Part shown: positions 18,001-21,000 of the stretch, one piece after another
How positions within the stretch are numbered: the first letter of the stretch is position 1
Layout of the letters: the number at the start of each line of letters is the position of its first letter
Source of the DNA: Escherichia coli
Lineage (GTDB): Bacteria > Pseudomonadota > Gammaproteobacteria > Enterobacterales > Enterobacteriaceae
Direction: 5' to 3' (one strand)
Assembly (NCBI RefSeq): GCF_003018115.1
Contig: NZ_CP027457.1
Length of the DNA stretch: 64,000 bases
Program-made: the position numbers

Positions 18001-21000
18001 GATGCATCGTAAAGCACGCGGCGATGAGGTTGGTAAAACCAAGTTTGGCGGTAGAAATTACTGTGCCGAATCCAACGGTAACGCTGCCGACACGCTGATG
18101 CTGTGTGCCTCCTGGGTCGCCCAGACGGATCTTTCGGAGTTCTTTAAGAAATGGAATCCGGGTGCGAATGCTTACCAGTTGCCGGGGGTGAGCGAGATGA
18201 ACTTCGAGGGCGGTGTGAGCCAGTCGGCTTACGAGACGCTGGCGGCGCTTAATCTGCCGAAACCGCAGCAAGGGCCGGAAACCATTAATCAGGTTACCGA
18301 GCATAAGATGTCAGTCGAGTAAGCCAGTAGGCCGGATAAGGCGCTCGCGCCGCATCCGGCATGATATAAGGCGCACCGGGTCAACACATATGCCCGATGC
18401 GCAAGCTTATCGGGCCTACAGAGAGGGAAAGCTGCGTTTATTTGCGTTGGCAGACACCTGTAGGCCGGATAAGGCGCTCGCGCCGCATCCGGCATGATAT
18501 AAGGCGCATCGGGTTAACACATATGCCCGATGCGCCATCTTATCGGGTCTTCAGGGAAAGCCGCGATTACTTGCGTTGGCAGATACCAGTAGGCCGGATA
18601 AGGCGTTTTACGCCGCATCCGGCAAGTTACAACAAACAACCTTTAACCATGCTTTTTGATGTTTTTCAGCAATACCCCGCGGCGATGCCCATACTGGCTA
18701 CCGTCGGAGGATTAATCATCGGTAGTTTTTTGAATGTGGTGATTTGGCGTTACCCCATCATGCTGCGCCAACAAATGGCGGAGTTTCACGGTGAAATGCC
18801 GAGTGCGCAGTCAAAAATAAGCCTGGCGCTGCCACGCTCGCACTGTCCGCATTGCCAGCAGACTATCCGCGTTCGTGACAATATTCCGCTGCTCTCCTGG
18901 CTGATGCTCAAAGGTCGCTGCCGCGATTGTCAGGCGAAAATCAGCAAGCGTTATCCGCTGGTGGAGTTATTGACAGCACTCGCTTTTTTGCTGGCGAGTC
19001 TGGTCTGGCCAGAAAGTGGATGGGGGCTGGCGGTGATGATATTATCCGCCTGGCTGATTGCCGCGAGCGTCATCGACCTCGATCACCAATGGCTGCCCGA
19101 TGTTTTCACTCAGGGCGTATTGTGGACAGGGCTGATTGCGGCATGGGCGCAACAGAGTCCGCTCACGCTACAAGATGCAGTCACCGGCGTCCTGGTGGGA
19201 TTTATCACTTTTTACTCGCTGCGCTGGATAGCCGGAATAGTTCTGCGTAAAGAAGCATTAGGCATGGGCGATGTATTATTGTTCGCTGCTTTAGGTGGCT
19301 GGGTGGGGGCGTTGTCGCTGCCCAATGTTGCTTTAATCGCATCATGCTGCGGCCTGATATATGCCGTTATTACAAAAAGAGGATCAACCACACTGCCTTT
19401 TGGACCGTGTTTAAGTCTGGGCGGTATAGCAACACTTTATCTACAGGCATTGTTTTAATGATAACCACGTCATTATCGAAGTGACATTTTAACTCTTATT
19501 AATAACCTTAGAGATTATTTACCATGTCGATAAAACAGATGCCAGGGAGGGTATTAATATCGCTATTGTTGAGCGTTACAGGATTATTAAGTGGCTGCGC
19601 CAGCCATAATGAAAACGCCAGTTTACTGGCGAAAAAACAGGCGCAAAATATCAGCCAAAACCTGCCGATTAAATCTGCGGGATATACCTTAGTGCTGGCG
19701 CAAAGTAGCGGCACGACGGTAAAAATGACCATTATCAGCGAAGCGGGTGCTCAGACCACGCAGACGCCTGATGCCTTTTTAACCAGCTATCAACGACAAA
19801 TGTGCGCTGACCCGACGGTGAAATTAATGATCACCGAGGGAATTAATTACAGCATAACGATTAATGATACACGTACAGGTAACCAGTATCAGCGGAAACT
19901 GGATCGCACTACCTGTGGAATAGTCAAAGCATAACGTCGGGTAGATATAAATTGGCGCGGGTTGTTTTTCGTGACGCACGAATTTATCTCATTCAGTGGC
20001 TGACAAAAATTCGTCACACTCTTAGCCAGAGACAATCTCTTAATACAGACCAAGAGCATCTGCGCAAAATTGCTCGCGGGATGTTCTGGCTGATGCTGCT
20101 TATTATTTCTGCAAAAATGGCGTATTCACTCTGGCGCTATTTCTCCTTTTCTGCGGAATATACGGCGGTTTCTCAATCGGTGAATAAACCGACCCGTGCG
20201 GATGCAAAAGCGTTCGATAAAAATGACGTGCAATTAATCAGCCAGCAAAACTGGTTTGGCAAATATCATCCCGTCGCCGCACCGGTAAAACAACCCGAAC
20301 CTGCACCTGTGGCCGAAACGCGTCTTAATGTGGTGCTGCGCGGGATCGCCTTTGGTGCCAGACCCGGCGCGGTTATTGAAGAAGGTGGCAAACAGCAGGT
20401 CTATTTGCAGGGTGAAACGCTGGGCTCGCACAACGCAGTGATTGAGGAAATCAACCGCGACCATGTGATGCTGCGCTATCAGGGAAAAATAGAGCGTCTG
20501 AGTCTGGCTGAAGAGGAGCGTTCCACGGTTGCTGTGACCCGCCAAAAAGCCATCAGTGACGAAGCAAAGCAAGCTGTTGCTGAACCTGCTGTCAGTGCGC
20601 CAGTTGAGATCCCGACTGCCGTGCGTCAGGCACTGGCGAAAGATCCGCAGAAAATTTTTAACTATATCCAGCTTACGCCTGTGCGTAAGGAGGGAATTGT
20701 CGGTTATGCAGTGAAGCCGGGGGCAGATCGTTCTCTGTTCGATGCCAGCGGTTTCAAGGAAGGCGATATCGCCATTGCGCTAAATCAGCAGGATTTCACT
20801 GATCCACGAGCAATGATTGCTCTGATGCGGCAGTTACCTTCAATGGATTCCATTCAACTTACGGTTTTACGCAAGGGTGCGCGCCACGACATTTCCATCG
20901 CGCTGCGCTAACCGCATTTAATCCAGGAGAATCATTCATCGTGTTTTGGCGTGATATTACGTTGTCGGTCTGGCGTAAGAAGACAACTTGCCTCAAAACA

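Follow-up and report, generated by a model that had tools for sequence, protein, structure and literature searches.

The sslE/T2SS-beta gene cluster lies within the window (the whole stretch of Escherichia coli DNA that was analysed, 64,000 nt of contig NZ_CP027457.1) and begins with sslE (yghJ; 13763..18322, plus strand), which encodes a lipoprotein M60 metalloprotease with the Pfam domains Peptidase_M60, M60-like_N and DUF4092. The second gene is pppA (18649..19458, plus strand), encoding a prepilin peptidase (Pfam A24_N_bact and Peptidase_A24), and it is followed by the T2SS pilotin gene gspS2 and by gspC-K; these assignments follow the RefSeq annotation of the 100% identical F9792 record. 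SslE is a mucinase, a virulence factor and a vaccine candidate. The sslE stop codon (TAA) occupies 18320-18322 and the pppA ATG is at 18649, not 18650, leaving a gap of 326 nt (18323-18648). Tiling arrays show that the cluster is co-transcribed in BL21(DE3) (PMC5435950), where the gap is 163 nt long, and co-transcription in ETEC H10407 is ascribed to Yang 2007 in the citation given by PMC5012682.

The gap is occupied by a tandem array (18324..18624, plus strand) that is wholly extragenic according to the RefSeq annotation. Tandem Repeats Finder (TRF) reports 2.3 copies with a period of 133, 88% matches and a score of 459, against a best score of 56 in 50 dinucleotide-preserving shuffles of the whole window. 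A search for repeat families leaves the register unchanged, with 101-nt copies at 92% identity spaced 133/129 nt apart, and the pattern GCCGGAT...ATCCGGC matches the array at 18331-18360, 18464-18493 and 18593-18623, where the chance expectation for the window is 0. The array contains five REPs, and each 133/129-nt unit consists of one Y-type REP, a 29-nt linker, an inverted 29-nt z1-like REP and a spacer of about 40 nt. A sequence-only reading had already placed about 2.3 copies of a REP-built unit of some 130 bp here, between the first two genes of the cluster, and the repeat statistics, annotation and Pfam domains agree with it; the end that it gave, 18632, overshoots the last REP by 8 nt. 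The array is not mentioned in three papers on SslE regulation (PMC5012682, PMC3707838, PMC4014459).

A Y REP is defined as about 35 nt long, a conserved GTAG preceding an imperfect palindrome whose bulge is an AA/GC mismatch, a z1 REP as 29 nt long, and a BIME as two inverse REPs with an intervening linker, frequently found in consecutive tandem copies (PMC8266576). The definition of the Y type describes the three segments GTAGGCCGGATAAGGCG...CGCCGCATCCGGCA at 18327-18361, 18460-18494 and 18589-18624. Y-type REP 1 (18327..18361, plus strand) is GTAG plus a 31-nt imperfect palindrome with the AA/GC bulge, seen both as an inverted repeat and as a predicted RNA hairpin of -20.9 kcal/mol. The head-to-head linker 1 that follows (18362..18390, plus strand; 29 nt) contains a half-REP arm, AAGGCGCACCGGG, whose complement is the head of the REP that comes next, and linker and z1 together form a predicted hairpin of -19.3 kcal/mol. 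That next element, z1-like REP a (18391..18419, minus strand), was found by pattern scan; it is inverted, has the 29-nt length of the z1 definition, GTAG on the minus strand and the bulge, and its hairpin has a predicted energy of -13.5 kcal/mol. Its arm is a compensated variant, GCCCGAT/ATCGGGC, where the canonical z1 arm is GCCTGAT/ATCAGGC. Tail-to-tail spacer 1 (18420..18459, plus strand; 40 nt) is locus-specific, forms a weak hairpin (fold -7.6 kcal/mol) and is a diverged copy of spacer 2.

The second unit opens with Y-type REP 2 (18460..18494, plus strand), identical to REP 1 and recovered likewise as inverted repeat, pattern match and hairpin fold. Within head-to-head linker 2 (18495..18523, plus strand), the segment GGCGCATCGGG pairs without mismatch with CCCGATGCGCC of z1-like REP b in an 11-bp stem, an inverted repeat that is 100% complementary and gives a hairpin of -27.7 kcal/mol. 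Sequence and unit alignment place z1-like REP b at 18524..18552 (minus strand; hairpin -10.7 kcal/mol); it is inverted and has a decayed tail, with GGTCTTC in place of GGCCTAC, so that GTAG is lost on the minus strand. Tail-to-tail spacer 2 (18553..18588, plus strand; 36 nt) is of the 'B-type', diagnostic of the window-like two-unit allele, and copies at least 95% identical to it occur in 127 of 5426 complete genomes. The partial third unit is Y-type REP 3 (18589..18624, plus strand), a pattern match with the loop variant GTTTTAC and a hairpin of -21.7 kcal/mol. Between it and pppA lies an A/C-rich unstructured leader (18625..18648, plus strand; fold energy 0.0) that is conserved in all four aligned alleles and has no obvious Shine-Dalgarno sequence. 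The sole near-match to the IHF consensus WATCAANNNNTTR is in this leader, at 18634, outside the array.

With the order Y(+), linker, z1-like(-), spacer, repeated 2.3 times, the array conforms to the BIME definition, and its REPs are multi-copy and extragenic, as are E. coli REPs of the Y type: the Y REP part of the unit has at least 20 matches per genome, and typically 40 or more (20 to 66 among the matches listed). BIME-1 or RIB/RIP elements, reportedly described by Boccard and Prentki in 1993 as Y-L-Z1 with an IHF site, resemble the unit in having one Y REP, one inverse 29-nt z1-class REP and a linker of about 30 nt. The sslE-pppA unit differs from them in its z1 arm and in its linker, which carries the half-REP arm pairing with the z1 head instead of an IHF site; the IHF consensus has no match with up to two mismatches on either strand of 18324-18624. 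It differs also in being tandemly repeated, a property typical of BIME-2 rather than BIME-1. BIME-2 elements, which are gyrase targets, alternate Y with 37-nt Z2 REPs, and no Z2 REP is present in the array, where both non-Y REPs are 29 nt long. The only Rfam family to which the array gives hits is RF02564 (naRNA4, the RNA derived from REP325); the best scores are 37.4, 35.9 and 33.0 bits, below the gathering threshold of 59.5 bits, and these reflect REP similarity. No REP features are listed in the RefSeq MG1655 record. The array is an ordinary E. coli REP/BIME of an 'atypical' Y/z1-like type, its kind is already known, and it is almost certainly a REP/BIME copy-number variant.

In E. coli no noncoding repeat is commoner than the REP/BIME array, and variation in the copy number of such arrays is well known. 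The comparison of copy number among strains that the sequence-only reading had proposed shows that the sslE-pppA unit count does vary. Gap lengths of 129, 139, 155, 163, 193-197, 296, 326, 330 and 733 nt are observed: those of 129-163 nt hold a partial unit, those of 193-197 nt 1.3 copies (K-12 has the 197-nt gap), and that of 733 nt, from strain E200086, 5.3 copies. Gaps of 326-330 nt, with 2.3 copies, are found in about 130 of 5426 genomes, and O55:H7 has one of 326 nt. The locus is thus multi-allelic, with about 0.5 to 5.3 units, and the description 'tandemly duplicated' needs some qualification, the two units being only 88.7% identical. When 5426 genomes were searched by BLAST with spacer 2 (query 18546-18590), the query matched once per unit and at the sslE-pppA locus only, in 1034 genomes and with a median of 1 place per genome. 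The full unit is confined to this locus and its REPs are genome-wide repeats; a dispersed 133-nt element is ruled out, the REP parts alone being dispersed. More than two thirds of the sslE-positive genomes lack the long-spacer unit (present in 1034 of 3541), so the full array is dispensable, and the short gaps sampled (129-163 nt) carry decayed REPs.

The first 48 nt of the two window units are identical, and the remainder differs by 11 substitutions and a 4-nt deletion. Since the units differ by 11%, the duplication is not recent, and to judge from these sequences it would be old or made from diverged alleles. FDAARGOS_943 carries a chimeric unit. Seven other two-unit alleles were examined, and six of them (L007-L012) have GTAT in the first Y REP. 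Directly repeated Y REPs, identical over about 48 nt, bound each unit, and unequal crossing-over, slippage or gene conversion between them would add or remove units of 129-133 nt; such recombination would make the locus the copy-number variant that it is. Among two-unit strains the gap is 98% identical, as against 90-95% in the flanks, which might be taken for selection on the array. We rejected this explanation: the mismatch positions delimit a shared haplotype block (~18316-18788) with recombination edges and dense differences outside it, and the identity of the gap therefore reflects recombination history, not constraint.

The predicted RNA fold of the sslE-pppA gap has a z-score of -6.0, with three Y hairpins at about -21 kcal/mol and two linker/z1 hairpins at -19 and -28 kcal/mol. 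The stem of the first REP begins at 18331, 8 nt after the end of the sslE stop codon at 18322. No intrinsic terminator (a GC-rich hairpin followed by a U-run) was found on the plus strand between 17800 and 19200, the REP hairpins running into A/C-rich or mixed sequence, and no sigma-70 promoter was found on the plus strand of the array. The sequence-only reading had suggested that the array may act as an mRNA stabiliser or attenuator and uncouple the expression of sslE from that of the secretion genes downstream, and had named uniform transcript coverage as evidence against this. Coverage is not uniform in published K-12 RNA-seq data, where DESeq2 baseMean values are 1472 for yghJ (4563 nt), 62.4 for pppA (810 nt) and 5.0 for yghG, or 323, 77 and 12 per kb; the drop of about 4.2-fold from yghJ to pppA is, however, one of crude gene-level counts in a strain with a 1.3-copy allele and a rearranged downstream operon. 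The step is not assignable to the array because of that allele, the crudeness of the measure and the continued fall to yghG, and the drop past pppA could be ordinary polarity or differential decay.

Roles of REPs as stabilisers and attenuators have been described since the 1980s. The classic stabiliser is the set of malE-malF intercistronic REPs, whose effect was reportedly shown experimentally by Higgins in 1982 and Newbury in 1987; these, too, lie after the first gene of an operon, which encodes an abundant exported protein, and before genes for its transport machinery, an arrangement that leads one to expect the upstream gene to be the more highly expressed, both there and at sslE. The mal operon is a different one with fewer REPs, and the parallel is by analogy only. 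A closer counterpart is REP325 (yjdM-yjdN) of E. coli K-12, which increases the transcript of the gene before it and lowers that of the gene after it about 8-10-fold, in part via Rho; upstream/downstream ratios are also raised genome-wide at tandem gene pairs separated by REPs, and REP effects are strongly context dependent (bioRxiv 10.64898/2026.03.23.713779). Like REP325, the sslE-pppA array consists of alternating inverted REPs in tandem between co-oriented, co-transcribed genes. REP325, in contrast, has 12 hairpins of Y/Z2 (BIME-2-like) type, against five of Y/z1-like type with a long locus-specific spacer here; the naRNA4 score of the sslE-pppA array is 37 against the gathering value of 59.5, and the effect of REP325 has been demonstrated whereas we infer that of the present array. 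In the Rho-binding-screen table of the same preprint, yghJ and pppA are not among the entries listed.

We suggest that the co-transcribed array RNA would fold into five stable hairpins, which would form a barrier to 3'-5' exonucleases and so protect the sslE mRNA. Placed in 326 nt of untranslated RNA, they would in addition serve as a partial attenuator, probably with help from Rho. The sslE transcript would in consequence be more abundant than that of pppA/gsp. The first REP, with its stem 8 nt past the stop codon, may in addition slow terminating ribosomes and trim SslE translation. Any attenuation would be partial, because the T2SS-beta is expressed and SslE is secreted in strains that read through their arrays (literature including PMC5012682 and PMC5435950). 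The stabiliser or attenuator role fits what is established about REPs and agrees with the REP325 study (bioRxiv 10.64898/2026.03.23.713779), and by analogy the array probably causes a modest reduction in the expression of the genes downstream. Whether it has a measurable attenuating or stabilising effect in the sslE operon we regard as evenly balanced. Taken as a whole, an REP/BIME array that gains and loses units by recombination and serves as attenuator and decay barrier is the account that we favour, with somewhat better than even confidence.

The array could instead be a neutral or selfish relic of REP/BIME proliferation, through TnpA-REP/RAYT-type activity and then local unequal recombination, whose copy number drifts with no meaningful effect on the expression of sslE or the T2SS. 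Its extreme length polymorphism, with truncated or decayed REPs in some alleles, would suit such a history, as would the loss of GTAG in z1-like REP b, the GTAT of the first Y REP in most of the other two-unit alleles examined, the shared haplotype block that accounts for the conserved two-unit gap and the variable, often absent, effects reported for REPs. Five co-transcribed, untranslated hairpins of -19 to -28 kcal/mol are, however, unlikely to leave exonucleases or Rho unaffected, and the genome-wide ratios at REP-separated gene pairs (bioRxiv 10.64898/2026.03.23.713779) and the 4-fold per-kb drop across the K-12 array also point the other way; we consider a neutral relic rather unlikely, though a serious candidate. 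An effect mainly on translation, by which the first Y REP stalls terminating ribosomes and leads to mRNA cleavage, tmRNA action and less SslE (the mechanism of Liang, Rudd and Deutscher), is compatible with the favoured account and does not exclude it. REPs less than 16 nt past a stop codon, for example in nrdAB, down-regulate translation (Liang 2015, in the summary given by PMC12306157); the sslE stem falls within this distance, and an REP lies within 0-8 nt of the stop codon in every allele examined. The putative effect on SslE has to be set against the abundance of SslE in several strains (PMC5012682), and since only the first REP is needed the tandem array is left unexplained, so that translation as the main target seems unlikely.

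A role at the level of DNA or the nucleoid, with the array bound by IHF (BIME-1), cleaved by gyrase (BIME-2) or giving rise to an HU-binding naRNA that organises the chromosome, finds some encouragement in the links of all three to REP families (including PMC12306157) and in the weak naRNA4 matches of 33-37 bits. We think it very improbable given the absence from the array of the IHF consensus and of the Z2 REPs that define BIME-2, and naRNA4 scores far under 59.5; even for REP325 a nucleoid-compaction role was not found (bioRxiv 10.64898/2026.03.23.713779). Hardly credible at all is an array that holds a pppA/T2SS promoter or coding sequence, whether for an N-terminally extended PppA (ORF 18397-19458) or for small REP peptides. 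The frame upstream of the pppA ATG is indeed open for 93 codons in the window allele and has an in-frame ATG at 18397, but in seven of the 22 alleles a TAA in that frame stands three codons ahead of the pppA start, the lengths of the gaps are not divisible by three, the short ORFs are what REP palindromes usually yield on translation, and no sigma-70-like promoter was found on either strand. The extended PppA and the REP-encoded peptides were accordingly rejected.

A more far-reaching proposal, which we regard as distinctly unlikely, is that the unit number (about 0.5 to 5.3) forms a heritable, recombination-driven dial of the ratio of SslE substrate to T2SS-beta machinery. If so, more hairpins would bring stronger Rho-assisted attenuation and better protection of the sslE mRNA, and this would account for part of the unexplained strain differences in SslE production and secretion in pathogenic E. 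coli. The type of array, its variation and its roles being already known, the discovery value is small; nonetheless, a structured element of variable copy number that separates sslE from the genes dedicated to secreting its product could add to strain differences in SslE output. The natural alleles (partial, 1.3, 2.3 and 5.3 units at one locus) provide a ready series for the dependence of REP effects on array length, a question raised by the REP325 study (bioRxiv 10.64898/2026.03.23.713779).

We note that a sister array lies elsewhere in the window, at 62068-62352. Four further GCCGGAT...ATCCGGC palindromes occur in the window outside the sslE-pppA array, two of them being REPs of this sister array, and the GCCCGAT/ATCGGGC arm variant is found again at 49962.

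The tandem repeat that the sequence-only reading placed between sslE and pppA was recovered by Tandem Repeats Finder at 18324–18624, with a period of 133 nt, 2.3 copies, 88 % matches and a score of 459, compared with a best score of 56 among 50 dinucleotide-preserving shuffles of the whole 64 kb window. A second repeat search gave the same register, with 101 nt copies of 92 % identity lying 133 and 129 nt apart, and a further set of short inverted repeats. The sslE stop codon (TAA, 18320–18322) and the pppA start codon (ATG, 18649) enclose a gap of 326 nt (18323–18648). The segment 17900–19100 is 100 % identical to E. 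coli F9792 and six more complete genomes, several of these identical genomes being O169:H41 ETEC; in their records sslE and pppA flank the gap, followed by gspS2 and gspC–K, and the Pfam matches (Peptidase_M60/DUF4092, Peptidase_A24 and T2SS pilotin) are in accord with the gene names. Short in-frame tandem repeats with periods of 30 and 18 nt are present near the SslE N-terminus (13910–14026), where they encode a Pro/Glu/Thr-rich PEPTPEP linker that gives a spurious sub-threshold Pfam match to Trypan_PARP. The nearby glcA (11596–13278) is annotated as a frameshifted pseudogene (1682 nt) in the F9792 record; in the window it is an unbroken 560-aa ORF, equal in length to K-12 glcA.

Each array unit consists of a Y-type REP, a linker, an inverted z1-like REP and a spacer. 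The Y-type REPs (18327–18361, 18460–18494 and 18589–18624) comprise GTAG and a 31 nt imperfect palindrome with an AA/GC bulge, and each unit contains a 29 nt head-to-head linker and a tail-to-tail spacer of 36–40 nt. The first inverted z1-like REP (18391–18419) is 29 nt long with GTAG on the minus strand, and the second (18524–18552) has a decayed tail. By definition the y and z1 REPs of E. coli are 35 and 29 nt long respectively, and a BIME is a REP/inverted-REP pair, often tandemly repeated (PMC8266576); since its lengths and features fit these definitions, the array is a BIME, though an atypical one. The defining features of the known classes place it within the REP/BIME family but outside BIME-1, since a pattern scan of the linker that allowed two mismatches found no IHF consensus, and outside BIME-2, since it contains no 37 nt Z2 REP. 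The only Rfam similarity of the array, to the REP325-derived naRNA4, reached 37 bits, below the gathering score of 59.5, and this identity was rejected. The z1-like REP has a compensated arm variant (GCCCGAT/ATCGGGC) that also occurs in the window at 49962, and within the linker GGCGCAYCGGG is a half-REP arm that complements the z1-like REP head; in unit 2 an inverted-repeat search shows that these form a perfect 11 bp stem.

The comparison of copy number among strains proposed in the sequence-only reading revealed a series of alleles, with gaps from 129 to 733 nt and from a partial unit to 5.3 units. Of 5426 complete genomes, about 3541 carry the sslE–pppA junction. Among the lengths recovered from sampled strains, gaps of 129–139 nt (H105, HS) contain one Y REP, the z1-like REP and last Y REP having decayed to remnants; those of 155–163 nt (MZ1211, ZJ3920, BL21(DE3)) a single Y REP, with the z1-like REP intact and the last Y REP truncated; those of 193–197 nt (K-12, ET665, JA0266, 06-00048) 1.3 copies; that of 296 nt (EC42405) two Y/z1-like pairs with a short spacer and truncated last Y; and those of 326–330 nt (the window and 60 or more further genomes) 2.3 copies. 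The longest, 733 nt with 5.3 copies and 11 REPs, is from E200086, a human stool isolate from Mali (1175–1882 of locus L023, NZ_CM128605.1); here a 270 nt double-unit periodicity scores slightly above the 133 nt one, which suggests that a two-unit block was duplicated. Copies, at ≥95 % identity, of the spacer type that marks the two-unit allele of the window are present in 127 genomes (about 2.3 %).

The two units of the window are 88.7 % identical to each other and 97–99 % identical to the orthologous units of other two-unit strains, so the duplication is not recent; either it is older than the spread of this allele, or it reflects unequal exchange between diverged single-unit alleles. Units 1 and 2 are identical over their first 48 nt (the Y REP and start of the linker), with all differences in the remaining 85 nt, and two single-unit alleles (L019 and L020) resemble unit 2. 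The directly repeated Y REPs bordering each unit are the obvious substrate for gains and losses, both of which are explained by unequal crossing-over, slippage and conversion. In the 330 nt allele of FDAARGOS_943 (NZ_CP065615.1) the second unit is a chimera whose left part resembles unit 2 and whose right part resembles unit 1; the record for this strain annotates sslE as a pseudogene that lacks the N-terminus. Between two-unit strains the gap is 98 % identical, as against 90–95 % for the coding flanks. Because the mismatch map shows a haplotype block common to these strains (roughly 18316–18788) with dense differences beyond it, we read this identity as recombination history and not as constraint. 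Compared with six other two-unit strains the window is nearly without differences from 18589 to 18788, and about 12 differences, mostly at third codon positions and common to all six, then fall within 85 nt of pppA (18789–18873); there looks to be a recombination breakpoint inside pppA, in the region 18789–19077. The first Y REP keeps GTAG (18327–18330) in the window and in FDAARGOS_943, and has GTAT in 6 of the 7 other two-unit alleles examined (L007–L012). The GTAG tetranucleotide is essential for recognition by TnpA-REP.

The REP parts are dispersed and the whole 133 nt unit is not. The Y-REP end matches at least 20–66 places per genome, and the tail-to-tail spacer is confined to the sslE–pppA locus (1034 of 5426 complete genomes, median one place per genome). 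A second BIME-type array (62068–62352; period 113 nt, 2.5 copies, 92 % matches, score 479) lies between convergent ORFs at 61122–62042 (+) and 62361–63338 (−), with GCCGGAT-type REPs alternating with diverged GTCGGAT/GTCAGAT palindromes. Directly past an ORF ending at 49952 there is a REP cluster (49960–50060), in which a z1-like REP with the GCCCGAT variant and a CTAC tail (49962–49985) is followed by a Z2-like REP (GTCTGATGCGACGC...CTTATCAGACCTAC) and the start of a Y REP. With both present in the same window, arrays of this kind are evidently commonplace in this genome.

Folded as RNA, the gap gives −148 kcal/mol (z=−6.0), far better than shuffles, with three predicted Y hairpins (−20.9, −20.9 and −21.7 kcal/mol) and two predicted linker/z1 hairpins (−19.3 and −27.7 kcal/mol). 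The first REP stem begins 8 nt past the sslE stop codon, and a 24 nt A/C-rich leader, unstructured by folding, follows the hairpins up to the pppA ATG. Co-transcription of sslE and the T2SS genes downstream of it is described for ETEC H10407 (Yang 2007, as cited in PMC5012682) and BL21(DE3) (PMC5435950), so the array is transcribed within a polycistronic RNA. The REP325 array of K-12, located between the tandem genes yjdM and yjdN, both stabilizes its upstream transcript and attenuates the downstream gene 8–10-fold, in part Rho-dependently, with fragments of 2–4 hairpins attenuating less than the full array; genome-wide, upstream/downstream ratios are raised for tandem gene pairs with intervening REPs (bioRxiv 10.64898/2026.03.23.713779). 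Any action of the sslE–pppA array would resemble that of REP325 or the malE–malF REPs, and the array could be a partial attenuator and barrier to 3′ decay that biases expression towards sslE. Ribosome stalling and lowered translation are reported for REPs closer than 16 nt to a stop codon (Liang 2015, as described in PMC12306157), and the array may act additionally as a translational brake on SslE. The repeat itself was correctly described in the sequence-only reading, and its suggestion that the array stabilizes mRNA or attenuates, decoupling sslE from the secretion genes, appears reasonable for this allele.

The chief alternative to a regulatory role is that of neutral repeat DNA: the long-spacer unit is missing from over two thirds of the genomes with sslE, the sampled short alleles contain decayed REPs, secretion functions in strains with differing alleles, and REP effects are reported to be context dependent. 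Uniform transcript coverage, which the sequence-only reading had named as the observation against a regulatory role, is not what is seen in the one locus-specific data set found, the DESeq2 table of the REP325 preprint (K-12, 1.3-copy allele, LB, exponential phase). There the baseMean values of yghJ (sslE), pppA and yghG are 1472, 62.4 and 5.0, or 323, 77 and 12 per kb, an approximately 4.2-fold drop across the array, although the drop continues downstream and these are gene-level counts, a crude measure, from a strain with a rearranged operon. The drop is consistent with attenuation without proving it. A DNA-level role involving IHF, gyrase or naRNA is a weak alternative, as the array fails the corresponding sequence tests. 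An internal promoter is likewise improbable, with no sigma-70-type promoter predicted on the + strand of the array region; no intrinsic terminator was predicted on that strand either. The open frame 18397–19458 could extend pppA upstream through the array, but it is closed by TAA in 7 of 22 alleles and this reading is also weak.

The array shows no departure from known biology. The analysis adds a natural series of alleles that runs from a partial unit to 5.3 units, the duplication's age and, for K-12, a crude step in coverage. It is unlikely that strains differ in their balance of SslE and secretion machinery because array copy number tunes it, and this would be moderately interesting if true. 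In the K-12 operon remnant (NC_000913.3, 3110590–3119112), the RNA-seq table of the REP325 preprint gives yghE (baseMean 337) and yghD (77) higher per-kb values than pppA and yghG, which lie upstream of them; this suggests a separate yghE/yghD transcript.
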